A DNA stretch of 48,427 bases, filler included, from Jimgerdemannia flammicorona (Eukaryota): assembly GCA_003990765.1 (NCBI GenBank). It is 2 parts of 2 records of this genome, joined end to end, with 100 filler letters (N's around TTAATTAATTAA, not from the genome) between each part and the next. Parts side by side here need not be neighbours in the genome. Positions count along the whole stretch, not along the records: positions 1 to 24,164 come from RBNJ01001014.1; 1 more part is not named here. One strand, 5' to 3'. A program made the position numbers and the translations under genes. Below are positions 3,001 to 48,427 of the stretch, piece by piece (within the stretch, counting starts at the first letter, position 1; each line of letters opens with the position of its first letter). The notes beneath the pieces were generated by a model, which was not told where the DNA came from, made no database searches, and saw nothing but the letters and a program-made list of their open reading frames with translations.

Positions 3001-3637
3001 CATCAGCACCCCAACATTCAGCTGTCAGAATCCAGTCAATTCTTGTCCCTAAGCCATTCACCCAGTGCGTGTAGATCCTGGAGTCGCCCCACCATGTTTG
3101 GCCCATATCCCCTAAGGAGCTAAGGTTTTCCACCTCCTCCTATGCATCTATACCACCACTCCTCTCACCAACATTCCTCCCTCCATCAGTCCTATCTAGC
3201 CACAAATCTTGCACTATGTTAAAATCACCACCAAGAACATTGACCCCTTCCTCCAAGAGAATGCCCTCCTCCAGTAGCTCCTTAATCCACACAATCCTCT
3301 CTCCCCTAGCTGCCAGGCAGTAACAAGAGCCCACCCTCACTGATTCCCACCCTGGCTGGTACTATTTACCCCAGACCAAGCGATTTCCCCAGCTCTTGAT
3401 TCCCTCCAAATCTCCTCTACCCTTCTTTACCAGAATCGTCACCTTTCCAAACCAAGTGGTAGCCCCACCCCATTCCCTAGTCCATTCTACCTGATCATCC
3501 TCATCCTCACACTGTACATCCTGCAGTAAAAAGAGATCAGCCTCCAATCCCTTTAGCTATGTAAAAATGTTCTTATGCCACCCAGATCCTCGAAGGCCAT
3601 TCACATTGAGAGAGAAAATGTTAGTTGTTCTTTTCAT
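1..3637 (-). pseudogene. LINE ORF2 (APE endonuclease - reverse transcriptase - C-terminal Cys/His motif), many stops and frameshifts
   Basis: ATG at 3637 (MKRTTNIFSLNVNGL); stop TGA at 1-3; pieces in ORF track 3362-3547, 3140-3340, 2723-3133, 2180-2494, 1541-2005, 1139-1537, 263-637. Confidence 0.93.
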
Positions 3638-3668
3638 GAGGAATATTGTTAAAGATTAAACCTCTCCT

Positions 3669-5678
3669 CTACAAATCCACCCTCAAGTCCTCCTGTGCCA
3701 AATCCAAGATGTGTTCCGCAGCCAGTTCCTTCTTCTCAGCTCCCTGTGCCTCCAACCCCTCCAGAAGTTCAACCATTGTCCCATCCTCTTTCTCCTCAAA
3801 GTCCTCCCAATACTCCCCACAGGCCTCTTGCCAGAACTACAAACCATGGCGTTCTGCCCAACAGTAGGCAGCCTGCTCACCAGTGACAACCACCAGCTCC
3901 ACCTTCCTCACCTCATCTACCTCATAACCCTCATCTTCCAGTAATATTGTAAGAATCTCCATCTTCAGTACCTCCACCACTCCATCACCTCACAGGATCC
4001 TTGCCCAGTACTCCTCCAACATGATCCTCAGATCCACTTCCCCCAACACCTCAGCTGCAAGGTTATCTATCACCTTGCTCATCCACAGCAGGTTCCCAAT
4101 CTCCTTCCCTCCAGGGGTCCCCAGCTGCCCTGCATCTAGCATCGTAGTATCAGTACCTACACTGGCACCCTCATTCCACTCCTCCTCTGGGACATCCACC
4201 AGCTCATCCTCACTAACTGCCACCACCTGGCCCCCTTTCGCCACATCTGGGACTCCAAAGGTAACTTGCTAGGCCCCCTGTATTGGTACATCTTCTGCTG
4301 CCCCTCTCTGCTCCACCGGGCCCCTCCTGACAAGTGGGGGGGGGGTGCCATCTGACTCCTCCTCCCAGACCTCGAAAGTACCGTCGGCATAGGGATCCTT
4401 GCCCAGCACCTTTGCAGCCCATTCTTCTGTCACCACCGCCTCCTTTCCACCTTTGCTAGCCCATACACTGGCTTTGATGCCTCCAGAGCCCCATCTACCT
4501 TCCTCTTCTCCCCTCCTATCATACTCGCCAAGAGCTCCCTCTGCCTCAAGTGCCCCTGGGCCTGCTCCCACTGCCTTTTGTCAGTGCGGACATACAATCT
4601 CCAGGTATGTTGACTCCTCATAGAGTTTCCAGGCCTTTGCCCACCATTCCACCACACCACTCATCTCCTCCAATGCTTCCAACAAATCCTCCTCCTCCTT
4701 CTCACTCCCCTTCACCCTCGATACCTTACAAATAAAAGCCCCCCACATTAACACTGAAGGCCAGTCACTTGCCTTCCCCATGACTTTCTTGCCTGTCAGC
4801 CTAATTCTGACATCAATGTCACCTGTCCTGATCGTCATCCCCTCCCACACCTGAAAGCCAATGTCCACCACATCACCATACTCAATCATCACCTCCTCCA
4901 CCCTCTTCCTCATCTCCTCCTTAGTCACAATGGGCACCCCCTTCACCAGAAGTTGCACCACTCTGGGGTCCCATCACAAGTACCTCACCATGGGGACCAC
5001 TACCTCCCCAACCACAACTCCAGTCTTCAGTGCCTCATCCAGGGGGCCTGCCTCCTCAAAGCCCACCTCGACCCCCTCCAGACCCTTCAAGAACTTCACC
5101 GAGGCTGCCCCGGCCACCTGCTTTGAAACAAGCCCCAGAACCATCCTCACTGTCACTGCCAAGCCCTGGAAGCACAAGGTCACTGCGAATTTCAAGATTG
5201 ACTTCTTGAGTAACAGGGTCACCACCAGCCCTGTTACACTATCTGCCAGATCCCCCTTCTGCATCGGGAGCCCCTGCCCCACCTGGCCATCAGCTGTCAC
5301 ATCTCTTTTTTTTTCCTGATTCCCTGTCACACTCCCATCAACAGTCACACCCCTAGCCACTGTACCTCCAGCCCCTATGCTTACACCCCCAGCCTGGGGA
5401 CCTCCCCCCCTCCCAAGGCTCATCTTGCCCTTCCCCACAGCAGCACCAGCCCTGTCTCCAGCTGGCCATCCACTCCCCTTCACCTTGTCAGCAAAGCTGG
5501 AGGGGCCAGCCTTTCTGCTATCACCACCTGTCACCAGTCCTCCTCCAGAGCCCTCACCACCATTCAACTCTCCAAAGGCCCCCATCCCCAGGCCATAACC
5601 CCTCCCCACTTTCTGCCAGCCGAAAGCCCCAGCTCTCCCTGACCCAGTATACTTGTCGGAACTCTTGCTTGAAGACAT
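3669..5678 (-). pseudogene. LINE ORF1 (Gly-rich N-terminus, RRM-like region, acidic C-terminus), disrupted
   Basis: Colinear with ORF 42955-44673 (LLKKS..F.VT.CF.GL.V; YG.++D+GF.VWEG; WP..LMWG); ATG 5678 (in-frame ATG at 5717), stop TAG 3669-3671. Confidence 0.88.
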
Positions 5679-5760
5679 ATTGATAGTACCTTTTCTCCTA
5701 GTTGTGTCAAGAACCATTGCTTGAAGTTTTGTATAACGTGAATTGTACAGGAGAAAGGTG

Positions 5761-8700
5761 GAAATTCAGCATGATATTCCTATGCAACATTCTCCACCAT
5801 ACCACCCAGAACTTGGGAGGAAGCCACCTCCACACCTCTGCACTCCAAGACCAGATACCTGCCTAGTCCCACTCCTCACCGATCCCTGCCACCTGCCAGC
5901 CACTTGGTCAAAGATCCTGGCCAAGCCCCTGCTGACACTTGACTCTCTCCCCAATATTGAATGTAGCCAGTGGAGCACCCCCCAGGAGCAGTCTATCCCA
6001 ATGCCACATATTAGGCCCCCACACCACCTCCCCCTCATTACCTTGCCAGTGCAGGCCAATTCAGTGTGCTCCATCAGCCACTCTCCACCAAAAGCCCTTG
6101 AACCACAGCCTCTGAATTCCATTCAGCCCCACCAAAGAGAGCAGATCCCCAGAGGACCCTCGAGGGGATATTCACATCTCCCACACCTTCTGCAGCAGAG
6201 GCACCCAACCTCTGCCCTACAGTTCCATAGCTCTCTTCAACCACCAGGCTCATAAGCAGTGCAGCTTCTTAGGGAAATCCACCAGGCCAAGACCTCCCCT
6301 GACTACTGGTCTCACAAGAGTATCCCAACTGACCTGGGACCTCCTCTCCCCCCAAATCTAATCCCTAGCCACCTTCGTCAGCTTCCTCACCACCCACACT
6401 GGGAAGTCGAGGTAATATGCCACATACCACAGCTTGGGGAACCAATATACATTCAGGATTGACACCCACCCAGCTAGAGAGATATGGCAGCCTCCCTAAC
6501 CTCGAAGGGCCTCCCCCCAAATATTCACCCTGCTCTCCCACCATACTCATGACAAGACAGAACCATATATAGAGAGGAAGATGCCCAGATACTGCACCAC
6601 CTCACCAGTAGGGACAATTGTTCCAATGACATCCCCACCCACTAGCCCATTCCCTAGCACCATTATCTCACACTTATGCCAGTTGAGCTTTGCCCCTGAG
6701 TGAGCCTCATACCATTCCACAGTCTCCCGAAGTGCCTCTACATCTGCCACCGACCCAAGTCCAACCACCATATCATCAGCAAAGGCCCCCACCTTCCACA
6801 CTATACCATATATAGAGAGCCCTGCTATCTTCTGGCGAATCCTATCCATCAATAGCTCAAGCGAAAGGGCATAGAGAATAGAGGACAGAGGGTCCCCCTG
6901 AGGAACTCCTCTTCCCAAGGAAAATGCCCTCCCATGGTGAGCATTACATGTCAGAGCTGCCCAACTGCTTTCCAGCAGACTCAACATAGAGGCTCTAAAT
7001 CTTGGGGGAACACCAATTCAGTCCAATACCTTGCCCAGCCACACCCGCCATACATGGTTGTAGGCCTTCTCCTGGTCCAAAAAGACCAATCTTCCATCCA
7101 GTCCACAGGCCCAGGCCCCTTCAATGACACCATGAACCCATGCAGTCCCATCTCTTATAAGTCTGCCCCCAACAAAACCCCACTGCTCCTCCCCCAGCAC
7201 CTGTTGGGCAACTTTCTACAGCCTCGCAACAATCACCTTAGTCACTGTCTTTCTGTCCATATCCAGAAGTATGATCGGCCTCCAGTTCTTCCAGTCTTCC
7301 CTCCACCCCTTGTCTTTGTACAATAAGGCCACCAGCCTGAGATCCTGCTCGCCAACCCACTCACTGCTCTGAAGGACATGGTCACAGAGAGCAGCCATCT
7401 CACCCAAAACTCTGGGGACATCTACCATCTTCTTCCAGAAGTCCCATGGCAATCCATCCTCCCCTGGCGCTGTCCCAAGTATAGTTGCTGCCAGGATACT
7501 CTGGATCTCCTCTCTCTGCACTGGTAAGATCAAGTCACCCAGTCCAGCTACTTGTGACAGCCCCCACTCTTCTAGTATATCCACAATCTCTGCCTCATCA
7601 GCACCCCCTTCTCTCTCACTCCACAAGCCCTGCCATCTCTCCTTCAAAACTCCTAAGATTCAATGTGTGCCATGTACTATGTCCCCATCAGCATCCAGGA
7701 CCCCATCCCACCAATGTTGCACTCTCCTAGCTTTGAGAAGTCTTGATAAGTATCTAGTAGGCTGCTCACCCTCCTCAAGCCCCTGCCATCATAGTCTAGC
7801 AGCCATACCCCACATATGAGATTCCTCCTCTTCCCTCAACACCTGTTGTAGTTCCACTATCTCCAATTTCGCCCTCTCTATCCTCCAATCTTCCACCCCA
7901 ACAACAGTGAGCAAATCTGCCCACTCCATTTGTAGACTCCTCAGCCTGCTGAAAGCACACCTCATGCACCTCCTCCTCTGCCTCCTGGCCTCTCTACCAG
8001 CCCCTCCCTAATAAACCTTCATAGCTTCTTTCAATCTCATCCAGCAGACAGCCACAGGCAAACCCTCATGCCTCCAGATAAAAACTTTTGGCTGAATGTC
8101 CTCTACCCACAATTCCCACAGCCCCTTCTCAGCCAGCAGGGAGGAGTTAAGGCACCAATGTCCAGGTCCATCTCTACTCTCCCCAAACTGCCCCTGCCCC
8201 AACAGACCTGAGTGATCAGACCATGGGCACCACTCCACTTCCAATGCCTTCCAAACATCTGAACCCCAGCACTCCGCCATCAGAATCCAGTCAATCCTTG
8301 TGCCCAAGCCATTCACCCAATGTGTGTAGACCCTGGCATCACCCCATCTTGTTCTGCCCATATCCCCCAAGGAGCTCAATGTCTCCACCTCCTCCCATGC
8401 ATCCAGACCTCTACTCCTACCCCTGGCACTCCTCCCTCCATCAGTTCTGTCCAGCCACTGATCCCGAACCATATTAAAGTCTCTACTGAGAACATCGACC
8501 CCTTCCTCCAAGAGAATACTCTCCTCCAGCAGCCCCCTAATCCATGCAGTCCTCTCACCCCTAGCTGCAGGGCAGTAGCAAGAGCCCACCTTCACCGATT
8601 CTCACCCAGGCCGATGCCAATCTCTCCAGACCAAGCGATCACCCCAGCTCCTGATTCCCCTCAAGTCTCTTCTGCCCTTCCTCACCAGAATCACTACCTT

Positions 8701-9146
8701 TCCAAACCAAGCAGTAGCCCCACCCCATTCCCTAGTCCACTCTACCCAATCATCCTCATCCTCACACCGAACATCTTGTAATAAAAAGAGATCAGCCTCC
8801 AATCCCTTGAGCCAAGTAAAAATGTTCTTATGCTGCTCAGAGCCCCTTAGCCCATTCACATTCAAGGAGAAAATGTTGGTTGTACTGTTCATAAAGAATA
8901 ATGATATATCGTGGTCCCATCCTCTATAAGTCCACATTCCACTCCTCCTGCACCAAGTCCAAGTTACATTCAGCAGCTAGTTCCCTCTCCCCAGCTTCCT
9001 GTACTGCCAACTCTCCCAGAAGTTCAACCATTGCCCCATCTTCACACTCCTCAAAGTCCTCGCGATACTCCAGACAGGCCTCCTGCTAGAGCCACAGACT
9101 ATGATGCTCTGCCCAACAGTAGGCCACCTGCTCACCAGCAACCACC
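5761..9146 (-). mobile_element. LINE copy 2; 5'-truncated in ORF1 and interrupted near its 3' end by copy 1
   Basis: ORF2 ATG at 8892 (MNSTTNIFSLNVNGL..LLQDVR); RT motifs in 7018-7200 and 6547-6987. Homology to copy 1 stops at the 'LNF' codons at 5761 and at ~9146 in ORF1. Confidence 0.92.
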
Positions 9147-9543
9147 CCCTCTACTAGAAATTGCATACCTTTTGGAAACAAGACCATCACCCAGAAATTG
9201 CATACTTTTGGAGATCACTGTACTATACAAGATTGTCACACCAGATATTGTATACTTTTGAAATACAATTATCATACAGAAATTGCATAAGGAGAACTGC
9301 CAAATTGCCAGACTGTTATATATAAGGAATACCTGTACCATATATACAAATTTCTGCTATATCTAGAGAACTGTCCCAATTAGGAAATTTACACACAAAT
9401 CACCTGCAGATATCCAGCTTTGACTATTATACCACTAAATACAAAGAATATTTTGTTGCCTTTAACAAAGTAACTGGGGGCTCAAGCCAAACTACATCAA
9501 CCCCCAACCTTGTAATTGCCTCTATTGAGCTAGGTACATTACA
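9147..9543 (+). mobile_element. LTR (3' part) of a Ty3/gypsy-like retrotransposon
   Basis: Ends ...TACATTACA immediately before a PBS-like sequence. Homologous to a second copy at ~10340-10596 + 16781-16837. Contains degenerate AGAAATTGCATAC(T)TTTGG repeats. Confidence 0.75.
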
Positions 9544-9545
9544 TT

Positions 9546-9563
9546 TGGGGGCTCAACTGAGAA
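9546..9563 (+). other. Primer-binding site, tRNA-Pro-like (TGGGGGCTCAACTGAGAA)
   Basis: Starts 2 nt after the LTR-terminal CA; begins TGGGGGCTC like known tRNA-Pro PBS sequences. Confidence 0.7.
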
Positions 9564-10107
9564 GATTTCAAAATTGACATGAATTTTCAGCTCACAAGAA
9601 CTGATAGTCAAACTGGATAAATTTGATACAAAATCAATCTCTGTCACTATAGAAGAACCAGTTATCACCAGCATTTGGACAGGAAGAGAGGTAATTACCT
9701 CAAGACTTGCTAATTACCCAGCATCAGAAGGATCCCAACCAGAAACCAGTACAGCCTGAAATCTCCAACCAGATCAACCAGACAACATAGGTGGTCCTGT
9801 TAGAGATTTTGAAGAACTTGCCTAAGAACTAGAAGATATCATTACATAAGTCTGAAATCATACAGCCAGATACCCCACAGCAGTCCTACCAATCTCACCT
9901 ATAGAATCTTTACCACCAGCCCTTGCAGAACTAGAAGCAGCTCCTTCAAGAATACCTAGGCTCACTCTACTTCAACTAAGATCTGCAACACCCTCCTCAA
10001 GATACTCAATCACTTTCACTCTCAGTAACAGTTCAGAAAGTATATCAGAGTCGGAATCTAAATCAGAATCTGGACCAGAACCAGAATTAGAAGAAAGTGA
10101 TAATGAA

Positions 10108-10325
10108 ATGGCCACCTTATTGCCAATCTTTGCAGGATATCTGGAGGAAAACCCCAGAGAATTCCTTGATAGAATTGAAGGAATTGCAGCTCTGAGGAAT
10201 CTCCCAGATGAAAGAAAAATTGCCATTTACAAGGCCCAGCTCAGAGAACCAGCCAGAGGAATTTTCCACTAAATAGCAAATGATCCAAATTCAGAACTAG
10301 CAGTAGAAATACAAACAGCAGTATC
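10108..10325 (+). pseudogene. Ty3/gypsy-type gag (capsid N-terminal) fragment
   Basis: Translates MATLLPIFAGYLEENPREFLDRIEGIAALRNLPDERKIAIYKAQLREPARG, matching the P.F.G...E.P.EFL...E......D..K......L...A pattern of retrotransposon gag; lies downstream of LTR+PBS; in-frame stop and truncation. Confidence 0.7.
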
Positions 10326-10596
10326 TTTCTAGCTGGAATATATATACTCATATTATATAGAGATCATCATACTATATAAGATTATTATACAGAAACTATA
10401 TATATTTAAGAGATTACTACTATCTAAAGAGAAAACTACTTATATTATATATAAATTACTACTATACTCAAGAACTGTCTCAATAAGAAAATTAACTACT
10501 ATATCTAGATTTGACTATTATACTACTAAATACTAATATTAGAGATTATAAAATATTTTATTACTCTTTGACAAAGTAACTGAGAGTACAAGCTAA

Positions 10597-13500
10597 CATC
10601 TTTCTCCACTATTATTTACATAACACAAACTTTAAAACACACTTTTGAACTATTTATTGGAGAAAGATACTAAGATCATAGCAACCAACAAGTAAGCTGA
10701 CATGTATACTAGGTCAGATAGACCTGGAGTCTTTGACTGACAATATATTAGATGAGAGTATGGACTAGAGATAGAGTCTTTTAGTAGTCCAAGTAGGCAG
10801 GACAGTTTGGGCAGTAGTAGTGCTCCCAAATGAGTCGAATCAATTCAAATCGAATCGAATTGAGGGTTAAACAAGTCAAATCGAATTGGGGATTTTTCAA
10901 TTTGAATCAATTCAAATTGAATCAAAAGTCAAATTGAATTGAGGGTCTGATTTGAACCCTAATTTTCAAAATGCAATAACTCAGCGTAAACTCATCCAAA
11001 TCTAACGTACTTTAGCCTGTTAGAATCACATTAATATGGTGAATCTAACAAGCTAAAATACGTTAAATTTGGATGAGATTTCGTCGAGTTATTACATTTT
11101 GAAAATTAAGGGTCGAATCAAATTGGACCTTTGATTCGATTTATTGGGAGCACTAGACAGTAGTAGCAGCACTGGGGGAGAGATAGAAGGGCAGAGGGAG
11201 AGGAGCTTTGCCAATACATTGAAGGCTGGAGAATGGCCTATTGGAGCTCATGATAGGCAGGTAGAGGAGAAGAGAAAGCAGAGAGAAGGAGAAGTGAGAG
11301 GTGCAGCATCTCAGCCAGTGGGTGAAAGAGCTGGAAGAGTAGCTACTGGGAGTAGGGGGAGAACTACTGATAGTGGTGTAACTGAGAATCTGGAAAAAAA
11401 TCCAGATGTGACTGCTGATAGTGGGGCTGAACTGGTAGGACCAAAGAGGAAGAGAGATCTGGTAGATAGTGTGATAGGGCTGATAGTAGTACTATTGCTC
11501 AAGAAGTCAATCTCAGAGTTTGCTATAATCTTGTATTTCCAGGTCTTGGTGGTGATAGTGAGGATAGTTCTGGGGCTTATCTCTAAGTAGGTGGCTGGGG
11601 CTGCCTCGGTGAAGTTCCTGAAGAGTCTGGAGGGGGTTGAGATGGGCTTTGAGAAGGCTGGCCCAATAGAAGAAGTGTTGAAGGCAAGAGTGGCTATAGG
11701 GGAAGTAGTAGTCCCTATAGTGCACTGTCTGAAGTGGGACCTCAGAGAGATTCAGCTACTGGTGAAGAGAGTACCTACTATGATGAAGGTTGAGACTAGA
11801 AGGAGGGTTGAGGAGGTGATGACAGAGTATGGCAATATAGTTAATATTAGATTCCAGATGTGGGAGAGGACTACCTTTAGGATGGGGGATATGGATGTCA
11901 GGATTAGACTGGCTAAGAGAGAGGCCACTGGAAAGATAGGTGATGGGCCCTCAGTACTAATGTGGGGGGCCTTTATCTGTAAGATATCGAGGATGAAGGG
12001 GAGTGAGGAGGAGAAGAAGAATCTGTTGAAAACTCTGAAAGAGATGAGTAGAGTAGTTGAGAGGAAGACAAAGGCCTAAAAGATATATGTATAAGGAGTT
12101 GATATATTTGGAGATTGTAGATGGAAAATATCTCCACACTAACAAGAGGCAGTGGGAGAGGACTCAGGGGTACAAGAGGTAGAGAGAGCTGTTGGCAGGC
12201 CTGGAAGGAAGGGTGAAGAAGAATGAGAGTGGTATAGAGGAGTCTGGAGGTACTGAAGTGAGTATCTGGGCCAGTAAGGGGGAAGAGGATGTCAAAGAGG
12301 ATTGGGATGAGGCCAGGAAGCCACTGCCCAATGACTTATATGCAGATAGTATATTTAAAGTCTGGGAACAGGACTTAGATGGCACTTCTCCTCTTGTCAG
12401 GTGAGGTCCTGCTGTAAAGAGTTGGGCAGCAGAGGATGTGCTGATACATAGTACCCAGTGAGTTCATTTTGGAGTTTCTGATTTGGCAAAAGGGGGTCAG
12501 GTGGTGGCAGTTAGTAAGGATGAGCTAGTGGATGTAATGGAGGAGGAGTGAAATAAGTCTATAAGTACAGAAGTGGATATCATGATGTTGAGTACAGGAT
12601 GGCCAGTGTCTCTGGGAGAGAAGGAGGTAGAGAACCTACTGTAGATGAGCTAGATGATGAACAACTTTGTAGCTGAAGAGTTGAGAGAAGTAGACCTGAG
12701 GGTGATGAGTGAGGAGTATTGGATATAGATTCTGTATAGAGAGAGGGTGGTGGAGGCACTGAAGGTAGAGGTACTTGTAATTTTTCTAGAGAAGGAGGGG
12801 TATGAGATTGATAAGGAGAGAGAGGCTGAGCTGGTGATTATTACTGGTGAGTGGGTGACACACTGTTGGGCAGAGTGTCATGGATTGCAGCTCTGGCAGA
12901 AGGTGTGCCTGGAGTATTAGGAGGAGTTTGAGAAGAAGGAGGATGGGGAGATGGCTGAACTTCTGGTTGAATTGGAGATAAAGATAGCTGTAGAGAAGGA
13001 AGTGGATGCTGAACATAACTTAGATATAGCAAGGGAGGGGATGAATATGGATTTGTAGAGAATGAGTAGTACTTCTAAACATTATTTCCAATGAACAGTA
13101 CAACTAATATTTTTTCTCTGAATGTAAATAGGTTACAGGGCTCTGGGTGGCATAAGAATATTTTTACTTAGCTTAAGAGATTGGAGGCTGATCTCTTTTT
13201 ACTATAGGATGTGCATTGTGAGGATGATGTAGATCAAGTTGAGTGGACTAGAAAATGAGGTGGAGCTACTGCATGGATGGACAAAGTGGCAATTTTGGTG
13301 CAGAGTGGTAAAGGGGATTTGAGTGGAATTAGGAGCTGGGAAGACCATTTGGTATAGGGGGAATGGCATCAACCAGGTTAAGAGCTAATAAGAGTTGGCT
13401 CTTACTACTGCTCTATGGCTAGGGGTGAGCAGATTGTATAGATAAAGAGTCTTTTAGAGGAGGGCACATTCTTGAAGGATGGAGTAGATGTTCTGAGGAG

Positions 13501-16500
13501 TGACTTCAATATGGTGTGAGATCTTCAGTTAGATAGAACTGATGGAGAGAGGATTGCTGATAGAAAGAATGGTGGCCTAGACTCATGGGAAGAGGTAGAG
13601 AACCTTAGCTCCTTGAGAGATATAGGCTGAATATAGTAGAGAGATAAGAGGATTTACATATACTGAGTGAATAGCCTAGATATAAGGATTGACTGGATAC
13701 TGACTGCTGAATGCTGGGGCATGAATATTTGGAGGACTCTGAAGATAGAGTGGTGCCTATGGTTGGATCACTGGGGATTGTTAGAGCAGGGGCAGTTTGG
13801 GGAGAGTGGAGATAGACCTAGACATTGGTGTCTTAACTCCTCCCTACTGACTGAGAAGGTGTTGTAGAACTCTTAGATAGAGGACATTCAGGAGAAGATT
13901 ACTAGCTAGATACATGAGGGCTTGCCAGTGGATGTCCAGTGGATGAAGTTGAAAGAGGATGTGAGGATTTACTAGAGAGGAGCTGGTAGAGTTACTGGGA
14001 GGTAGAGGAGAAAGAGAGTGAGGGCTGCTTCAAATAGGTTGATTAGACTGCAAATGGAATAGGCTGAGTTGATAAATTCTGAAGAAGTGGATGATTGGAG
14101 GTTAGTGCAGACTAAGCTAAAAGTAGTGGAGTTGTAACAGATATTAAGAGAAGAGAAGGAGATACAGATGAAAGAAATGGTAGCTAGATTGAGGTAGTAG
14201 GGACTTGAGGAGAGAGAGAGACCCACTAGGTATTTGTCAAGGCTCCTCTAAGCAAAAAGGGTATAACATCAATGAGATGGAGTCCTTAATGCAGAGGGAA
14301 AAATGGTTCAGAGTATACAACAGATCTTGGGGTTGCTAAAGGAATGATGGAGGGGTCTGTGGAGCGAGAAGGAAGGAGGTGCTGATTGGAGACACTCTGG
14401 AGAATTGAGAGCTACTGTAAGTAGAGAACCTAGGGGATTTGATCCTATTAGTCCAAGAGGAGGAGATCTAGAGAGTCCTTGTAGCAACTAAGCTTAGAAT
14501 AGTACCAGGAGAGGGGAAATAGTAGCCCTCTGTGACATTGTTCTTCTGAATAGCCAGTGGGTAGGAGGGCAGGATCTAGGGCTAGTGATCCTATTGTACA
14601 AGGATAAAGAGAGGAGAGAGGACTGGAAGAACTGGAGGCCAATCATACTTCTGAATATAGACAGGAAGATAATTACTAAGATAATTGTAGCAATATTATA
14701 GAAGATTGTCCAATAGGTACTGAGTGAAGAGCAGTGGGGTTTTGTTGGAGGTAGACTTATCAGGAATGAGACAGCCTGGGTCCATGGCATCATTGAAGGA
14801 GTACAGGCTAGTAGATTGGATGGGAGACTGGTCTTTTTGGATCAAGAGAAGACCTATGACCATGTATAGCAGGTGTGGTTGGATAAGATACTAGATAGAA
14901 TAAGAGTTTCTCTGCTATTTTGAGCTTCTATAATGAATCTGTTGGAGGGCAGTAGGGTGGCACTATTGTGTAATAGTTACTGGGGTCTGACATTTCCCTT
15001 GGGGAGAAGAGTTCCTCAGGGGGATCCACTGTCTCCTATTCTATATATCCTCTCACTAGAACCTTTGATAGATAGGATTTGGCAAAAAGTAGTAGGACTC
15101 TCTATTTATAGTGTAGTGTAGAAGGTGGGGGCCTTTGCAGATAACATAGTGATTGGACTTGGATCAGTGGCAGATGTTGAGGCTCTGAAGGAGACAGTAG
15201 AATAGTATAAGGTACACTCTGGAGCAAAACTCAACTAGTATAAGTGTGAGATAATAGTGTTGGAAAATGGGCTAGTAAGAGGGGATATCATTGGAACAAT
15301 TGTCCCTACAGGAGAGACAGTGAGATATCTGAGTATCTTTCTTTCAGTGTATAGATCTGTCTTGCCATGAGTGTGGTGGGAGAGGAGGGTGACCATCTGG
15401 AGGAAGGCTCTTAGAGGTTGGAGAGGCCACCATATCTCTCTAGTAGGTCAGATATCAATTCTGAATATCTACTGATTCCCTAAGCTGTGGTATTTGACCT
15501 ATTACTTAGACTTTCCTGCTTGGGTGGTGAAGAGATTGATAAAACTGGCTAGGGATTGGATTTGAGCTGGGAGGCAGTCTCAGATCAGTTGGGATACTCT
15601 TTCAATACCAGTAGTTTGAGGAGAGCTAGGACTGGTGGATTTTTCTAAGAGACTGCACTACCTGAGAGCTTGGTGGTTAAAGCAGGCTGTAGAACTAAGG
15701 GGAGGAAGATGAGTACTACTGATGCAGAAGGTATGAAAGATGAGATTCTCTCTGAGAGGGTCCTCAGGGAATTTGCTATCTCTGGTGGGCCTGAGTGGAA
15801 GCCATCAGCTAAGGTATAAAGGTTTCTGGTAGGGGGTAGCAGATAGAGTATACTATATAGATCTGTGCTGGTATAGTAATGAAGGGGAGATGCTGTGGGG
15901 ACTAGCTATGTGGAGATGAGATAAATTGCTTTTAGGGGGCACTCTACTTATTGAGTTTGATATTATAGATAGAGTGGAGTATCAGTGGAGACTCAGTCAG
16001 AATCTTTAGCCTTAAAGTTAGCAAGTAGTGAGGATTGGAAAGAAGTGGGATTGAGCAGGAGTCTGGGTATAGAGTACTGCAGTGTGAAGGTGGCTTCCTT
16101 TCAAGTTCTGGGTAGTATGATAGTAGATACTATAGAGGTATATCATGTTGAATTTCCACACTAGATATCTAGTAGATAGTGGACTACTGGAATGTGAGGA
16201 GTGCTTCAATATAGGATAAGTTGGGGGATCTGTACAGACTCCAGAATACTGACTAGGAGAGTGCAAGATTATGGGGAACTTTTGGATAGTAGTAGAGGAT
16301 CAGGTGGGTGAAAGAAGAGACCAGATAGAGAGAGAGGTTGCTGGGAGGATCTGAGAACTAGGTTGATGAGAGGTGTGGGCAATGAATGGCTTACTATAGA
16401 GTGGGTTTTAGTTATATAGATAGGGCTGGCTGGATATTGACTCTTTGTTTTTGAGAAGAGGTAATAGATGGGTTTGCAGAAGAAGGTGTTAAGATGGGAG

Positions 16501-16770
16501 AGATTGATGGAGAATTTGCTGATAGAGTGGTGGGTTGGATGGGGTCCCCAGGGTAGGCACCACTACTATCTGGTGAAAGAAATATATGAACAGAGTAATG
16601 GGTGGGTGGAGGTGATTAATGACCTAGTGCTCTTTAATGTAGGGGGGGAGGGGGGTCTCTAGAGGGATCAGATAGGGGTGGGCTAAGTATATTATATATT
16701 AAATAGATAGATGTATTATGTAATAAAGGAAGGAGTCTAAGAGACTATAAAAATAAAAAAAAATAAAAAA
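10597..16770 (+). mobile_element. LINE copy 3, full-length, hypermutated, with 10-bp TSD and A-rich tail
   Basis: TSD TACAAGCTAA (10587-10596) / TATAAGCTAA (16771-16780). ORF1 ~10678-13058 (ATG mutated to ATA), ORF2 13091-16662 with dozens of stops; AATAAA and A-tail 16748-16770. Confidence 0.93.
10818..11155 (+). mobile_element. hAT-type MITE copy 1 (inserted in ORF1 of LINE copy 3)
   Basis: TIR TAGTGCTCCCAA...TTGGGAGCACTA; 8-bp TSD GGCAGTAG/GACAGTAG; subterminal AATCG/AATTG pentamer repeats; long internal palindrome ~10945-11128. Confidence 0.9.
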
Positions 16771-17120
16771 TATAAGCTAAACTACTATATCAACTTTTTA
16801 ATCTTATAATTTGTCTCTATTGAGCTAGTATATTACAATATATATATATAAAGTAAAATAGATATATATTTAAAAATAATAAGAATATATATATATATAA
16901 TAGTATACTTTACTATTATATATAGTAATTATATTCTTTAAGTTGATAATCTTTAATATTAATAGCTTAAAAATACTTATATATATTAGATATCTTTAGC
17001 TTGAGAAAGTAGCTATTTTAATATTTAAGTATTATTTATTATATTTATAATTGATTTAGTTTTCTTCCAATAAACTGATTTAGTAATTATAAATTTTAAT
17101 TTTTTAAAGTTTAAGTTTTT

Positions 17121-18308
17121 TTTATTTTTTTATTTTAATGGACTTATGTCCTGCAGAATTTTATTAGAAGAGAATCTAGACTATATAGGCCAAAACCCTC
17201 TCCCACTATCTACCAAGCACTGCCCCCCCATTAACCTAGGCTAGCTATTATCTAGCAGCTCAACTATACCAGGTACAGCAGAGCCTATGTTGGTCCATAT
17301 CTCATTCTGTGTACCACACTCTCCCTACCACCAGGGGAAACCCAATCATATGCCAATAACCAAAAGTGTATGCCTGAGAACCCAATGTATATATAAGGCC
17401 ACACTTGAGCCAAATAGAATAGTCCCTGTCACCCCAAAGAGAATGACAGGCAAAGAAAAACTCTCATCAAAGTATAACATAGTGGGTAGGGCCTGGTTCT
17501 CTTAGTTGAGGTGAGTAAAGGACTTACATGTGAGGTGGGAGGAAGCCCTCAATACTCTACTACTCAAGCCTGTAGGCCTCGATCACATTGCCATATCAGC
17601 TCTCGGTTCTAGTTGAGTGCAGCCAAGATGCCTGAAATGGGTAGCCTTGGGCCCCTCGACCCCCCCTGACGACTGGGGCCCAACCCCACTGACCACCAAA
17701 AGAAGCCGAGAGTGACACCTACCACCTAACTGCACTGCACCAATCAAAAGGCCCCACCAAAGCAGTACCTGCTCTAGCCCTGATGACTGTCCCCAGCCTG
17801 GTACCCTACTGGTTCACCATTATTGCCCTTCCTCCTATCTGTGATGGCCATCTCCCCTCTCATCCCAATAACACCTAAAAAGCAGTTATCTATGCTAGAA
17901 CCATGCTCACCGGGAAGCTCGCCAAAGCCAGAGGGCTCCACTACAGGTACTGAAGATCTGCAGATAATCTATACTGAGCACTTAATGTCCAAGATCGGCT
18001 GACTCCCTATATAGCCCAAGATATATTGAGACAATACCTTATTGATAATGGCAAAGGAAGAAGGTACCACACCAAAACGAGTATACCCCAGATGCAGCTA
18101 AAGGTACCAGAATCTGCGAAAAAGTGGAGAAAGCACCGATCTGACACTAATAAAGAGGTAACTCATCACCATTACCCTTCTCCCACCATGCCCCTGCAGG
18201 CATAGCAAACCAACCTGAGGTAGAGGGGGTAATATTAGGGAAAAGGAGACTCAGAAGGTCACCTACTAAACTCTGTGATCAGTAAGGTAGTGGAGAAAGG
18301 AGTACTGG
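17121..18308 (-). mobile_element. Putative non-autonomous retroposon (~1.2 kb) with poly(A) tail and TSD
   Basis: Flanked by AAGTTTAAGT(T/C)TTTT at 17107 and 18309. Minus-strand 3' end is AATAAA-GGACATAAGTCC-A-rich tail; 5' end carries CTTTCTCCACTA as in LINE copy 3; no recognisable RT. Confidence 0.7.
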
Positions 18309-19102
18309 AAGTTTAAGTCTTTTAATATATCTTTTTTTAGATATAGTCTGAATCTGTATATTTTTTAAATTTAAATATTTATAGAATTCAGAATATCTAA
18401 TTTTAAATAGTTTTATTTTAATTAACATAGAGACTTATATATCTATAAATTATAAACTTAAGTTTTAATTATTTATTTAATATTAAAGAGTAAAAATTTC
18501 TTTAATATTTTTTTAGTAAATAGGAAAATTTCCGAGATTTATTAAGTTATATATATTTTTAAACTCTTTTAGATTTTGCTAACTATTGGTTAAGAAATAT
18601 AAGATATAAAGTTACTTAAATATATATAATATAAAAGTTATATTATAATAATATTCTTACTAAGTTATAATAATATTATTTTTATATATTAACTATAAGG
18701 TAATTGTTCTAAATTTTACTATAAGACTATGATATAATATTTTATATATTCCAAACTATATTTGTTTTAAGATCAAATTCTGACTATTTTAAATTTAATT
18801 ATAGTCTTTATATTTACTTTTTAAATAAACTATTTTAATATATAATATTAATAAAATTGTAGACTATTTTATTTAATAATATTATTGATATCATTGATCT
18901 ATTTTTAGACTATAACTATAGTGATATTAGTGAGATTATATATATACTAAACTAATATAGAAACTAATGTAATTACTATAATATTACTAATATTATAGAC
19001 GAAAATTAATATAAAATCATTATAATCTCATTAATATTATTAGATTTTCCAATATATAATCTTATATTAATGATATAAATTTTAATAGTAATAAAAGTAT
19101 GA

Positions 19103-19592
19103 GGAGAGATTTCAGATAATTGGAAAGGTGGTTGAATTCTATAGAGAAGAGTAGTATTCTCAATAAATTAAATCAAATTGAATTTGACCCAAATTTAATT
19201 TAATATTTAATTTGAACTCAATTTTTTGAAATATAATAACTTGATGAAAACATATCTAAATTTAATGATCTTTAGCTTGTTAGATTCCTCTATATAAGAG
19301 GAATCTAACAAGCCAAAGATTATTAAATATAGACATGTTTTTATTAAGTTATTCTATTTTGAAAAATAGAGTTTGAATTAGACTCTCAATTTGATTTGAA
19401 TTAAAAAATCCCTAATTCAATTTGATTCAAATTGATTCAATTCATTTGAGAGTACTAGAGAAGAGATTGAGAGTAAACTCTATTGAGAGATTGAGTAAAA
19501 AATAAGACCTTGCTATTGTATTATATGGATATAGATTGGTTTGATAACAAATATAGAAGTCCAAGTAACTATAAAATAAAAATAAAAATAAA
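19103..19592 (+). mobile_element. Severely 5'-truncated LINE stub (~180 bp of 3' end plus tail) carrying MITE copy 2
   Basis: TSD AATAAAAGT(A/G)TGA at 19090-19102 and 19593-19605; ends AGTCCAAGTAACTAT(AAAAT)n like copies 3 and 4; translation GRFQIIGKVVEFYREEI resembles the ORF2 end GRVGVVGERVVFICEEV. Confidence 0.65.
19152..19457 (-). mobile_element. hAT-type MITE copy 2 (opposite orientation to copy 1, C>T/G>A eroded)
   Basis: TIR TAGTATTCTCAA...TTGAGAGTACTA; perfect 8-bp TSD GAGAAGAG (19144-19151, 19458-19465); same palindromic core TTTAGCTTGTTAGATTC...GAATCTAACAAGC. Confidence 0.88.
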
Positions 19593-20858
19593 AATAAAAG
19601 TGTGAACATTATTCCTGAAATCTGAGTATTGCATCTTATGGTGATGCATACTGATTACTGAGAGTTGAAGGTGTGGATGTCAACAATATCAATATAAGCT
19701 ATATCACACCTTTAGTTTGTGGATACTATATGGATTATCAGTTAGTCATAACCAGTCATCATTTCAAAAGATTATTTTCATAAATCAACCATCTTCCAAT
19801 TAATCATATAAGAGATAGCATACCGATATATGTCGCCACCTGCTTATAGGGAGCAGGAATAGGGGGGTAAGATTTGGTTGAGGACGGTTGTATGTATGTG
19901 GCGATGCATAAGGTACAGGAAGCCACAAGTATCTTATCCATATATCATCACACTCTGCAGGCTTGGTTAGAAACCCCACCAACAAACGAGCACACTGCAT
20001 CCGCGACCATTGCGAACGGCACCACGGGATGGACGAGGCTAAGCTCAAGCACACCGTTTTGGCTTCCAGGGCTCGACGGGACTGTCATGTCAGGCAGTCA
20101 CAGATGTTGTTGAAATGTGCCCCCATTCCGTATAATATTTCCTTGGCGTTCCAAATCCCCAAACGCGCAATTTATTTCTCTGCCCATGCGTGCTCAAAAT
20201 GTCAGTTTGGGAGGGATCGGCCGAGAAATCAAAGCGAAGCGTTGGAAGTCGTGCTTTTATCCCCGCATCACTCTTTCTCTCTTTGTTGCCCCGTCAGCTT
20301 GACTTTCATCCTCAGAACTCTAGGACAGAGGCCGAAGGTGAGTTGCCATGCGGGTTTCGGTATATGACCGCCGTCGTTCTCTGTTCGGCTTGAGCCTGGA
20401 TGATGATTTGACCTGGCAGAATTCCCTTATATGAGACGGCGCGGCGAAACGACGACGGAATGTAGTCGTCTAAACCCATACTGTCTCTGTTTTTCATGGC
20501 TTGAAGATGAGGCAAGACGTTTATGTATCGAGCACCATTGGGAAGAAAAGTAATTGAGCGTGGTTACTTATTGAGCATCCATTTTTGTCGCCAACACTTT
20601 TTTATTTAACCAGGGGCATTATATACCTCTAGATGCAATGCCGTCCAATGCTGACTCGATTTATTAGAGAAACCGGAAGCAAACATAAATACAATAGATA
20701 AAAATCGGCAGACAAAAAAAAAAAAGCATCAACCGAACAAGTAAAACGTCGAGCACCGCTTCCAAAATCGCACGCTGCATTACCCCCCTCAGCATCATCA
20801 TCAATTTCTAACCCCACTTCTTAAGGAGACTCTCGCCTCTCCACCGTTTCCTCCCCTC

Positions 20859-23298
20859 TCACGACCCAACACCATATACAGTTTCGATATACGTCACCCA
20901 CCGCAAGATGATCAGCTTGATATCCTCCCAACCCTCCAGATTCTGTACCCTTTCCCCCTTCACACCTCCCACGCCCGCACTATCGAGCGGAGTGCGTCTC
21001 TCGACCTTGAACCACTCGCGATGTATATTCCCGCATCCCTTGCATGTATTGAGGTCAGCACGGTGCTTGTCAAAGAGTTCGAGATGGATGAGGCGCTCGG
21101 CGCGGTGGGAATGCTTGCACTTTATAACGGGGCCGGAGTCGAGGTCAGAGGTAGAGGAGGTCGATGAGGAAGAAGAAGGAGAAGGGGAAGGGGAGGGCAT
21201 GGGCGAGCTGCGGAGATTAGGCTGCGGGTAAGAGGCGGTGGTGGGGAAGTGCTCGATGAGTTTTGGGGTGTAGCCGCATTGCTGACTCCATTGGTGGAGG
21301 CGCCGGTGGAGGTTGGTGGTGCGGCCGACCTTGTAGAGGCAGTAGGTGTCGGTAGAGGAGGAGGGGCCTATGGGAAATCGATATGAGAGGACGTTAAGTT
21401 GGCGTGTTGCGTTCGCCGGTATGACTATCCCGAAGGGAGGAGGTTGAAAGCGATACAATCGGAAAAAAAAAAAAAAAAAAAAAATTCCAGCTCACGAGTG
21501 AAAATGTACGTACCGTCCAATAACTGATAGGCGTAAATGAAACCGGCATCGTCGCTCGGGGAAATGGGTTTCTCCATCTCCATACGCAGGAGGTACCTTG
21601 TCTTCTCCGAAAGGCCGGGGCTTATCCATTCTGTAAATTCAAGACCGCGGAGATGCGATGGCGTGCTTCAATATCACGCAAAACGCCTCCCCCGCGTCCC
21701 ACCATCCCTCGATGCTTACCATCAACATGCACCCACTTCAGCTTGATCTCCTTACCCACGAACACGAGCTTTTCCCGGACCGCCTCGGACCGATGATGAT
21801 GACAGTATGGCAACGCGCCGTCCTCATTACTCTCATCGATTTTAACCTTATTGGTGCACCGAGTTCCCTTCTTACTGAACCCCTGGCACCGCAAACTGGC
21901 CTTGCCGCTCGGAGTTGTGTCTCGCTGCCCGAGGCGCGAGTGCGTGGGCGGGCTCGGCATGCGGGGGAGGGTTGGGGAGGAGTGTGTGCGAAGTTGGTTT
22001 GCGACGGTATAGGGGGAGGGGAAGGAGTATTCATCGTCGGAGTTGGAGTAGGTAATGGGAGGTTGTTGAGGTCGGTGAGGGACAACGGAGGTGGAGGGTG
22101 AGGGTGAGGGTGAAGGCGAGAGCGAGTCAGAGGAGGAAGGAGATGAGGGCGGGAAGGGTTTTTGTCCCTGGGGGACGGTGGAGGAATGGGATTTGCGTGG
22201 ATGGTTGAGGAAAGATTTGAGGTTGTTGACGAAACCTTTGATGGAGGAGTTGTCGTTATCACGCTTTTCAGGCGTGGTGGGAGCTGTGGCGTAGTGGCGG
22301 TTGATGAAGGAGAAAGGTTTCTGTGCGGCTGTTGGGGGGGAAGCGGATGAAGTGGGTTCATAATTCGTTGCCGGAGGTGGCGATGCCGTGGACAGGTTCG
22401 GTTCTGCTAACGGTGTTGCGGGGAGAGGTTTATTCACGTTTGCGTTAGAGGTTGATGGTTCTTGGAATGATGAAAGATCCATGCCATCTGCGTAGTCTTG
22501 CTGTTCGGTGGGACCCCGACTGCCCGAATATGGTGTGCGTTGCGGCGACACATTCGATGTTTGGGAAACATCTCTTGTTCCCGCTTGTGTTGGGGTTATT
22601 GGCGAACGAATGATCTGCGGCTGGTGCTTGCCGCTGACAGTGATCTCTGCAGGCGTTGAATCGCCGGAATAAATGACGATCACCGTGGTGGACTGTTGAG
22701 GGACATTGGTGCCGTTTATGTTCGGCACCGCGGAACGTTCCGGTGTCGCTGTCTTTTTCCGCCTCCCGGGTCCATTGCTTTTCGGCTGCTTGGTTCGCTG
22801 GGGTGTGGCGAGCGCGAGAGTCTGCATGTTCTCAGTTAGCTGCCCGAGTGAGTCCTCGGTGTCGTTTTCGAAGTCGTCCTCGACAATGTGTGGATCCTTC
22901 TTGCGAAGCGCAAGGGTTTGCATGTTCTCTGTCAACTGCGCGAGCGAGTCCTCGGGGTTGTTCTCGACGATGCGTGGAACCTTCTTACGAATAGTCTTAC
23001 TGAAGAAGCCGATGTCGCCGTCGTCGTCGCTGCCGTCATTGTCAGGGTTGTCACCGACAGCTTTGCTCTGAACTTCCCAGTCCGAGTCAGAGTCCGCGTG
23101 GACAGACTCCTTGCTCTTGCGAATGTTGAAGATGTCAGTGTTGTTGGCCTGGGCACGGTGAGAGTAGCAGAACTGGTTGCCGTCGGCGTCGGTCACGCCT
23201 TTGACGACAGAGCGCTGACACGGCTTGCCGTTCACGGAGATGCCACGGCATTTTGTAGCGTTGGGGCGCTTTGAGGGAGTTCGTTTGGTGACGTGCAT
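20859..23298 (-). CDS. T5orf172/MUG113 (DUF1766, GIY-YIG-like) domain protein, 3 exons: 23298-21720, 21630-21514, 21367-20859 (~734 aa)
   Basis: GT-AG introns 21631-21719 and 21368-21513 keep frame. Spliced product has GFIYAY...YKVGRTTNLHRRLHQWSQQC...HRAERLIHLEL...CKGCGNIHREWF, plus two C-x-G-x4-G-x2-C...CxxH modules. Confidence 0.92.
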
Positions 23299-23640
23299 GT
23301 CGCCAACATGAGGTTCCGCTTCGTTGAGTGTTTATTCAGGGGGTTTCATGATTGATCGTGGCGCGGGACAGGTTAAATGCCGTGTCACTCATTCACTATT
23401 TCTGATGACTGACTCCTGACTGACTCCTGACCTGCCAACCATCATCCCTCCCCTGCCAACCACCCCTCCCTCCCTCTCCCATCAATCAATCAAATGCCAT
23501 ATGGGTGTAAACTTTTACTGTTCCATGTACTCGCCGACCAAAACCTACCTAACGAAATACAGGACCAACAATGATGTACAGTGAACATAATAATACACGC
23601 ACCATCCTAACAATCTACTCTATAAACACCCCCTCAACCT

Positions 23641-24060
23641 CTAAAACCTCCTCTCTCCCCATCTCTCCCCGTTCCACCTCTCCCCCGGCCACCATCTGTC
23701 CTCCATCTTCCCAATCTTAATAACTTCTTTATACCCGACGACGCATGCGACCGTCCCGCCGACATCCGTCTCCTCCTTCACAACGACCGCGTGCGGCACC
23801 TCCCCCGTCGCGACCCGACGCATTGCTCGCGCCACCACGGCCACGGGTGCTGACACCTTGAGACCGAGACACTTGAGGGGTGCCGCTAGAACCCGGAAGG
23901 CCAGCGCCTCACCAATGTCGTTGCCTCGACCGCGGCGTTCTTCTACCTCGAGGCCAGAGGGACGGACGATGGTCACGCGCGCAAAGTTAGAGAGGCGGAG
24001 CATGTGTTCGGTTTCGCCTTTGGTGCGAAAGTAGAGGAAGGGTGACCCAGGGTTCGCGCC
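23641..24060 (-). CDS. Terminal exon of an Fmp52/HTATIP2(TIP30)-like NAD(P)-binding oxidoreductase; upstream exons not in the window
   Basis: After acceptor AG (24061-24062) the exon reads GANPGSPFLYFRTKGETEHMLRLSNFARVTIVRPSGL, the GANxxSxFLYxxxKGExE...IxRP signature of this family. The 5' part is lost at the assembly spacer. Confidence 0.8.
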   Translation of the reverse strand, partial: GANPGSPFLYFRTKGETEHMLRLSNFARVTIVRPSGLEVEERRGRGNDIGEALAFRVLAAPLKCLGLKVSAPVAVVARAMRRVATGEVPHAVVVKEETDVGGTVACVVGYKEVIKIGKMEDRWWPGERWNGERWGERRF

Positions 24061-24164
24061 CTAAAGTGGGGGTGGTGATAGTTTTATAATTTTTTATTTA
24101 TATTTTATTTTTGTGGATGGGGAAAGGAACGAGATTTTTAAACGACAAGGTTCTCCCCCCCCCC

Positions 24165-24264
24165 NNNNNNNNNNNNNNNNNNNNNNNNNNNNNNNNNNNN
24201 NNNNNNNNTTAATTAATTAANNNNNNNNNNNNNNNNNNNNNNNNNNNNNNNNNNNNNNNNNNNN
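24165..24264. other. Artificial 100-nt assembly spacer N44-TTAATTAATTAA-N44
   Basis: Symmetric Ns around a 12-mer that has stop codons in all six frames. Confidence 0.95.

Positions 24265-25316: not shown

Positions 25317-25366
<50 letters not shown>
24265..25366 (+). mobile_element. LINE copy 4, 3' portion (ORF2 C-terminus, 3' UTR, pure poly(A))
   Basis: ORF 24484-25257 with CEECHN..EHWLGEC; single upstream stop at 24448-24450; AATAAA 25294-25299, hairpin AGTCC-AAG-GGACT, uninterrupted A-tract 25320-25366. Confidence 0.93.
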
Positions 25367-28550: not shown

Positions 28551-28888
28551 ATAAAATTGAAGAAAACGATTAATTGAACTTGCGAGACGCAGCTGCCACA
28601 GGCAACACCACACACAACTGAACACAGGTACACCCGTTTGTAACACCTCGCCTCCACGCTCCACCACCCGCGAGCACTATGCGGCCTTTCCAAATCAAAT
28701 CCTTTCGAGAGTGCATTTATAAGTGTATAGATTTGCAAAAAGGTTTTAGAGATGTGCGAGTGACATCAGCAGTCAAAGAGTTCAAATATCGTTTGCCTAG
28801 CTGCAGTTTAGAAATATGTGTTGAAGTTTGTGATTTAGGGTCACATGTCACTGCGCCACCTGTCAATATGCGCGGTGGACCAGATAAA

Positions 28889-44673: not shown

Positions 44674-44704
44674 GTTGGGATCTCTATTGCAACATTTATT
44701 CAAT

Positions 44705-48408: not shown

Positions 48409-48427
48409 TGGGTAGGAATTATGTATA

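Follow-up and report, generated by a model that had tools for sequence, protein, structure and literature searches.

Context-dependent loss of cytosines from transposons of Jimgerdemannia flammicorona and its probable link to DIM-2-type methylation

Introduction

Several fungi are known in which the cytosines of repeated DNA are replaced by thymines. In Neurospora and other Pezizomycotina, repeat-induced point mutation (RIP) leaves C:G to T:A changes on repeats, open reading frames (ORFs) riddled with stop codons and AT-rich relics, and a DIM-5/DIM-2 branch of the process exists in Neurospora (PMC7882544, PMC12543289, PMC4165359). The present work deals with a stretch of 48,427 nucleotides from the genome of Jimgerdemannia flammicorona (assembly GCA_003990765.1), referred to below as the window, and mainly with a dead long interspersed nuclear element (LINE) found at about 11140-16770, the third of the LINE copies in it (copy 3). 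The dead transposons of this fungus, unlike the neighbouring genes, lose C to T on both strands, fastest before G, then before A and C, and least before T. Methylation of the transposons by DIM-2-type enzymes, followed by deamination, is the explanation preferred here, with a probability of roughly 0.6.

The scars are of the same kind as those of Neurospora RIP. However, RID was not found in family searches of J. flammicorona, CpG is lost before CpA, there is no burst or strand signature, and a duplicated host gene has been spared. Zymoseptoria tritici resembles the present case in having DIM-2, non-CpG C>T changes in repeats and a drift of its transposons towards AT (PMC8016269). On the other hand, the same report places more than 98% of those C>T changes at CA, with CG spared, in a fungus where Dnmt5 and Rid are present, whereas in J. 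flammicorona CpG dominates, CpC is affected too, DNMT1 was not found, and RID and DNMT5 are not listed for the species. In Phycomyces blakesleeanus, which also belongs to Mucoromycota and has DIM2, 5-methylcytosine (5mC) is reported to be restricted to repeats, in the order CG > CHH > CHG (H being A, C or T; PMC11258239). That species has DNMT1 and one DIM2 and its methylation was measured, whereas J. flammicorona has three genes of the DIM-2 clade and offers the mutational scar alone.

Methylation induced premeiotically (MIP) in Tuber melanosporum provides another parallel from a truffle-like, mycorrhizal and transposon-rich fungus, with a CpG preference and C>T changes that are higher in methylated transposons (PMC4165359); however, this is an ascomycete for which the cited part of that paper reports no CA>TA enrichment, whereas in J. 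flammicorona repeats have decayed to deserts of 12-18% GC. Outside Dikarya, RIP-like composition has been described in Entomophthorales such as Zoophthora radicans (PMC11105155) by means of dinucleotide indices, in contrast to the alignment-polarised substitutions and the host-gene control used here. A kingdom-wide k-mer screen reports RIP-like enrichment only in ascomycetes and classes J. flammicorona as 'no_rip' (PMC12543289 and its preprint). Its table gives 73% repeats for this genome (PMC12543289), so that the contrast between repeats and noncoding DNA used in the screen may be blind here. By alignment-based counts, this 'no_rip' species nonetheless shows hypermutation restricted to its transposons, by which repeats are worn down to 12-18% GC.

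A first, sequence-only reading of this DNA had proposed RIP-like hypermutation beyond CpG, of special interest if the host were an early-diverging fungus. This is indeed the case: J. flammicorona, a mycorrhizal species, belongs to Endogonales, in Mucoromycota, outside Dikarya, and ordinary RIP of an ascomycete host, which that reading had kept in view, does not apply to it. In a literature search that covered few subscription papers, no description of this pattern in Endogonales was found, nor any link of the enzyme set of the species to such a mutation spectrum. What is new about the decay is its lineage, its spectrum (CpG >> CpA > CpC >> CpT) and its reliance on a DIM-2-only repertoire.

Substitution spectrum of a dead LINE

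Copy 3 lies on the plus strand and consists of ORF1, an ORF2 with an APE endonuclease and a reverse transcriptase, and a poly-A tail. Its 5' region and ORF1 extend over 11140-13090 (the 5' boundary is approximate; BLAST similarity to copy 1 begins at 11368 and the frames resemble ORF1 of sister copies), ORF2 over 13091-16662, and the 3' end with the poly-A tail, identified by sequence, over 16663-16770. Exo_endo_phos and RVT_1 Pfam matches were obtained in sister copies, and from the order of the ORFs and their domains the element is predicted to be a dead L1/Tx1-type LINE.

Two other copies are found on the minus strand: copy 1 (1-5400), which belongs to a subfamily other than that of copy 3, and copy 2 (5759-9154), from a younger subfamily, which keeps about 20% of its ancestral CpG and has a non-CpG C>T of about 0.04. 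A distant LINE copy (42919-48427, plus strand) served as outgroup. Copy 3 is 72.6% identical to copy 1, and in genome searches the nearest relatives were at 78-83% for copy 3 and at 92-93% for copy 2. Judged by sequence, copies 1 and 2 and copy 3 belong to different subfamilies and are therefore not a like-for-like pair. The strong variation between neighbouring copies noticed at first is thus present, but copies 1 and 2 are compared with copy 3 across subfamilies; neighbouring copies differ mainly by subfamily, and probably by age. The accompanying statement that all transposon copies lack CpG was too strong: 1 CpG is left in ORF2 of copy 3, but 41 remain in copy 1, 25 in copy 2, 55 in the copy at 42900-48427 and 11 in an element of about 1.16 kb described below, and a repeat near 10900-11120, similar to a miniature inverted-repeat transposable element (MITE), has a CpG observed/expected ratio (o/e) of about 1.2.

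The spectrum was obtained from an alignment of 30 copies of the subfamily of copy 3, 31 of that of copy 2 (including copy 1) and the distant copy. Polarisation by majority or by a GC threshold was rejected because decayed CpG and the division into subfamilies distort it; for this reason three-way agreement and counts of private changes were used instead. The scored sites were the 1775 of 3324 columns at which the two subfamily majorities and the distant copy agree, possible ancestral CpG being dropped. The copy sets were the best 40 of thousands of candidates in each genome search; as such searches return the copies closest to the query, the sets lean to less-mutated copies.

At the conserved sites, copy 3 shows non-CpG C>T at 25 of 149 positions and G>A at 115 of 702 (together 140/851), against reverse transitions (T>C/A>G) at 5 of 755 and transversions at 9 of 1606, that is, an excess of about 25-fold and 29-fold, respectively. 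The loss was 0.256 in CpA, 0.198 in CpC and 0.06 in CpT, and the values of 0.2-0.26 for CpA/CpC, compared with 0.006 for transversions, extend the excess beyond CpG. Pooled values for the subfamily of copy 3 were 0.137 for C>T, 0.0064 for reverse transitions and 0.0064 for transversions, and 0.039, 0.0057 and 0.0038 for that of copy 2. The context spectrum against subfamily consensus, proposed at the outset as a check, thus places non-CpG transitions far above background, in the order CpA>CpC>CpT. In two sequencing runs, which are guessed to come from RNA, copy 3 had no orthologous cover, so that they yielded no spectrum of single-nucleotide polymorphisms among isolates.

The consequences for the coding capacity are those noticed at first, namely pervasive TGG>TAG/TGA and CAG>TAG changes: stops are found at 58 of the 1183 scored codons of ORF2, and 33 of 80 TGG and 10 of 32 CAG codons have become stops. 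The motif pairs quoted as examples do lie at matching positions, AACTGGCATAAG (minus strand, at 1418 and 6673) facing AACTAGTATAAG at 15233, and TGGTATAAG (minus strand, at 1451) facing TAGTATAAG at 15203.

Changes from TGG to TAG or TGA, which account for 33 of the 58 stops, resemble the APOBEC/AID-like editing of cDNA during retrotransposition. However, the excess of TGG stops arises because the sense strand is G-rich, and the rates on the two strands are alike (0.168 for C>T and 0.164 for G>A in copy 3), whereas editing of cDNA would not leave them equal within copies; the CpG-poorer of two MITE-like copies also changes in the same direction (30 vs 8). In all three families compared in this work, old CpG sites read CA more often than TG (2070 vs 1559 in the 1.16-kb element), which is a slight bias to antisense-strand cytosines. 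This family-wide excess would suit editing, but it possibly comes from subfamily structure, and cDNA editing is considered highly improbable.

Transposons and host genes

The C>T bias is confined to transposons, as seen in the CpG boundaries and in a duplicated host gene. Transcribed host genes at 19800-24100 have normal CpG, intergenic DNA keeps CpG, and the boundaries are sharp: CpG is back at about 300 bp from the repeat block beside these genes, and at a few hundred bases from repeat blocks in general. The homeobox gene region at 30549-33145 (plus strand) is matched on a second contig by a duplicate of 2.6 kb with 86% identity, which includes about 600 bp outside the ORF. Polarised counts for this pair were 26/1014 for C>T, 28/966 for reverse transitions and 52/1980 for transversions, with a transition/transversion ratio of 1.1 and a CpG o/e of 1.2 in both copies; compared with it, the C>T bias of copy 3 is supported by a Fisher p of 2e-22. 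This control is a single case, partly coding, partly under selection, and near the identity threshold of at least 80% that is quoted for RIP and MIP (PMC4165359). An all-versus-all comparison of CpG-normal sequence among the examined loci gave no further non-transposon duplicate.

Since the host duplicate is unbiased and CpG is back near the repeat edges, the bias is neither genome-wide nor due to age alone. Ordinary age combined with a genome-wide GC-to-AT mutation bias would agree with the larger non-CpG change, and the slightly more numerous private transversions, of CpG-poorer families. Against it stand the counts of the host duplicate, the CpG kept in intergenic DNA and the strong dependence on dinucleotide context, by which this explanation is already largely refuted and has very little probability left.

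The same duplicate bears on canonical RIP, that is, RID-dependent, homology-triggered, premeiotic and CpA-biased mutation, for which duplications of at least about 400 bp and at least 80% identity were taken as targets. The C>T/G>A changes in repeats, CpA as the top non-CpG context and a TpA/ApT that exceeds 1 both in copy 3 and in the AT-rich deserts are all in keeping with it. However, the 2.6-kb gene duplicate is untouched (within the limits just given for this one case), and no RID-like locus appeared among the family-search matches, which are an insensitive test, and none is listed for the species. Further evidence on this point comes from the kinetics of the decay.

Kinetics of the decay

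Three families were compared, among them that of copy 3 and a LINE-like element of about 1.16 kb with poly-A, represented in the window at 17117-18308 (minus strand, 11 CpG) and flanked there by target-site duplications of 10 bp (17107-17116 and 18309-18318). The CpG survival was 24%, 27% and 1%, and the non-CpG C>T 0.058, 0.044 and 0.144, respectively; in the same families the corrected per-cytosine ratio of CpG to non-CpG loss was 12.0, 14.5 and 14.8. All three families share the order CpA>CpC>CpT and a flanking preference, in which a pyrimidine is favoured at +2 and, at -2, T is favoured and C disfavoured. CAG decays more slowly than CAC and CAT. Private transversions amounted to 0.0015, 0.0032 and 0.0058 in the three families, being slightly more frequent where less CpG is left. 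In the 1.16-kb element, the CpA/CpC loss ranges from 1 to 19% among 81 near-identical copies and follows the CpG loss, with a rho of 0.74 in 38 copies with flanks and of 0.80 in 41 others, and of 0.78 within the family. Non-CpG loss thus keeps nearly the same proportion to CpG loss from one family to the next and follows it from copy to copy, although some decoupling, described below, is left. The excess of non-CpG cytosine mutation in repeats, absent from the host duplicate tested, stands as first described, but the need for a second process distinct from methylation is not supported as it was stated.

Canonical RIP acts in a burst-like manner and produces strand-biased mutation in each copy. 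In the three families, per-copy strand bias at p<0.05 was seen in 0/30, 1/31 and 3/81 copies, which is the level of chance; same-strand runs numbered 2327, against 2324.6+-17.4 in permuted data, and no spatial clustering of C>T changes was found within copies. Many light rounds of RIP would hide such a bias. CpG dominates 12-15 fold, and CpA is thus not the preferred context. The initial RIP reading is not supported as it was worded, and canonical RIP is very unlikely. As the decay behaves like DIM-2-linked decay and lacks two RIP features that were tested and one known from general background, it is not filed here as RIP.

AT-rich tracts

The tracts next to the LINE copies had been described at first as TA-rich deserts, and their GC content of 12-18% bears this out. 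In other copies, the tracts at 16840-17105 and 18320-19090 follow each other directly; they represent one old interspersed repeat split by the younger insertion of the 1.16-kb element. Its left part (16826-17116) has 12% GC, no CpG and 81% of its remaining C in CpT, and its right part (18309-19090) 13% GC. Nineteen relatives of this repeat have 13-20% GC and 0 CpG in the matched parts; its majority GC is 15%, with C or G in at least two copies at 32% of 432 columns. The repeat was probably AT-rich from the start, and no protein class could be assigned to it. The tract at 25370-26030 (18% GC, 0 CpG, 63% of the remaining C in CpT) gave only weak matches among the examined loci, where no genome-wide search was made, and no family was assigned. 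In the three tracts, 63-81% of the surviving cytosines are in CpT, compared with 21% in genes, and such CpT-dominated remains are the expected end state of the decay.

Cytosine methyltransferases of the host

A methyltransferase exon of this genome agrees at 99-100% with proteins labelled Jimgerdemannia flammicorona, in line with the named host. Three loci for BAH-type C5 methyltransferases with catalytic motifs were found in the genome (on contigs C8187, C3657 and C11271); of the two database models of the C8187 gene, only one includes motif I. In a tree of catalytic regions (31 rows, 376 columns), the three are placed among proteins named Dim-2 and separately from DNMT1/MET1, with a FastTree support of 1.0. 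For the two of them that were searched, the best PDB match was 9BAQ/9BAP, which is Neurospora DIM2 (PMC11315935). Long branches lead to two of the paralogues, one of which is joined, weakly, to a Basidiobolus protein and not to the proteins of Mucoromycota; this suggests that the genes duplicated and diverged long ago.

Two DNMT2-like genes are also present, one identified by its PDB match (C1744) and the other by its motifs (C58/C2181, read as one split gene, both contigs of which continue into Ty3-like DNA); two such genes are also reported for Phycomyces. A query of the genome with a whole Mucorales DNMT1 matched nothing, while a DIM-2 query of 35% identity worked as control, and the DNMT1 catalytic core matched only the three DIM-2 loci, at 29-39% identity. 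No RID-like locus was found among the PF00145/TIGR00675 matches, an insensitive search in which no RID query was used; as two methyltransferase loci escaped PF00145, searches of this kind cannot demonstrate absence. The inventory of methyltransferases advised by the sequence-only reading thus yields three DIM-2-clade and two DNMT2-like genes, with DNMT1 not found. The only DNA 5mC writers found by genome searches, in which RID and DNMT5 were not sought with their own sequences, are of DIM-2 type.

The enzyme inventory of the species is already in print: Dataset S1 of PMC9963178 lists three DIM2, KMT1, Raf1/DIM-9, HP1 and genes of RNA interference, and has no row of the species for DNMT1, RID1 or DNMT5 among its entries 1-2 and 61-180 of 184. 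Related to this, the same source describes RID-1 as confined to Pezizomycotina and DIM-2-like homologues as present in Endogonales (PMC9963178), and the DIM-2-type class is described as methylating all CpN contexts (PMC13297926).

Methylation and deamination as origin of the decay

The sequence evidence is best accommodated by the following scheme, which draws on the spectrum and its symmetry between strands, the steady proportion of CpG to non-CpG loss, the context order and flanking preferences shared by the three families, the CpT-rich remains in the deserts, the unaffected gene duplicate, and the DIM-2 clade of the three enzymes with the published inventory. Inserted transposon copies would be packed into heterochromatin marked by methylation of lysine 9 of histone H3 (H3K9me) and HP1, which would guide the three DIM-2-clade paralogues to methylate them, heavily at CpG, about ten times less at CpA and CpC, and little at CpT. 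Methylcytosine would then be converted to thymine by passive deamination, on both strands, site by site and with poor repair. CpG would be lost first and CpA and CpC next, until old repeats end as AT deserts with their last cytosines in CpT, and neighbouring copies would differ mainly by the time since insertion and by a copy-specific level of methylation. In Phycomyces, where DIM2 is present, transposon methylation is given as 3.4% in CG, 0.9% in CHH and 0.5% in CHG (PMC11258239), which by analogy appears similar in shape to the decay spectrum described here, where CAG likewise decays more slowly than CAC and CAT.

Several observations weigh against this explanation. Across the 1.16-kb copies, the C>T load was hardly correlated with the counts of transversions and reverse transitions (rho about 0.1), a test of weak power because there are only about 2 background events per copy. 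In the family of copy 3 the correlation was negative, probably due to subfamily structure. As the load does not correlate with background counts, age is only a probable factor. For 40 copies, a model with one common ratio is rejected (G=76, df 39, p=0.0003), and the 1.16-kb copy of the window, which was also the query, is an outlier, with losses of 0.27 in CpA and 0.14 in CpC, 10 of 70 CpG kept and no private transversion. Besides, the excess is very large, with about 0.7 per C at CpG against 0.0015 private transversions per site, and its size over background may need catalysis. As for the enzymes, CpT, which is hit least in J. flammicorona, is the reported preference of DIM-2 in Neurospora, and Dim2-dependent mutation in Zymoseptoria is reported to affect CA and not CG (PMC8016269). 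With neither DNMT1 nor DNMT5, the strong CpG preference would have to come from one of the DIM-2 paralogues, and in a fragmented assembly a gene may have been missed.

Some of these points would suit an active, RID-independent mutator, in which a DIM-2 paralogue promotes deamination and adds a CpA/CpC arm to the CpG decay, either in mitosis, as in Zymoseptoria, or before meiosis, as in the DIM-5/DIM-2 branch of Neurospora RIP. The very large excess over background, the spread of loads from 1 to 19% in 81 near-identical copies whose background counts are flat, the rejection of the single-ratio model, the presence of three DIM-2 paralogues and the Zymoseptoria precedent (PMC8016269) are in its favour. 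However, non-CpG loss rises with CpG loss, the ratio of the two differs little between families, there is no strand or spatial clustering, and CG is spared in the precedent. A hint of a separate arm came from 38 copies in which a higher ratio of CpA/CpC to CpG loss went with more AT-rich flanks (rho -0.49 to -0.50, p about 0.002, the correlation being one of 15 examined), but this effect was not seen again in another 41 copies (rho -0.14, p 0.38; pooled rho -0.34) and is unconfirmed. Such a mutator is possible but less likely. It is still more tentatively suggested that Endogonales run a RID-free and DNMT1-free mutagenic defence on a triplicated DIM-2, one paralogue serving CpG methylation and another driving CpA/CpC deamination; if true, this would be a RIP-like system outside Dikarya that composition surveys miss.

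Methylation by DIM-2-type enzymes followed by deamination, the preferred explanation, has implications of its own. If these are the only 5mC writers, DIM-2 alone would give CpG-dominant methylation and irreversible decay of transposons without RID or DNMT1, and such decay, if true, bears on the idea that RIP arose from an older mutagenic side effect of DIM-2. The spectrum predicts a methylome in the order CG >> CA > CC >> CT and points to the three enzymes.

Other features of the window

The 1.16-kb element looks like a non-autonomous LINE derivative: the same 5' start is found in 38 of the 40 copies examined (the other two being about 300 bp longer), among about 6000 search candidates. A related contig of 3259 nt reaches a depth of 662 in run X1, one of those guessed to be RNA, and has more C/G than the copy of the window. 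Palindromic MITE-like copies are found at about 10830-11140, with a CpG o/e of about 1.2 amid CpG-free repeats, and at 19090-19500, without CpG. The region of about 9200-10800 is a CpG-free fragment with a gag-like frame at 9856-10272 and no Pfam match, and is probably a decayed long terminal repeat element.

The window joins two contigs at 24165-24264, where Ns with a short spacer are found, and the 3' part of a LINE from a more distant subfamily, poly-A included, adjoins this gap at 24283-25366 (plus strand). The interval 20714-24060 holds a spliced minus-strand gene with T5orf172/MUG113 and DUF5763 domains, and one contig of run X1 also covers the gene upstream of it, at 23556-24060. The homeobox-type gene region is duplicated in tandem (26397-28663 and 29741-33145, about 70% identical), with further relatives on at least 10 contigs, and one copy carries five 63-bp tandem units at 30486-30801. 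Degenerate tandem units of about 150 bp, in long open frames on both strands, occupy 39841-40746, with no Pfam match and normal CpG.

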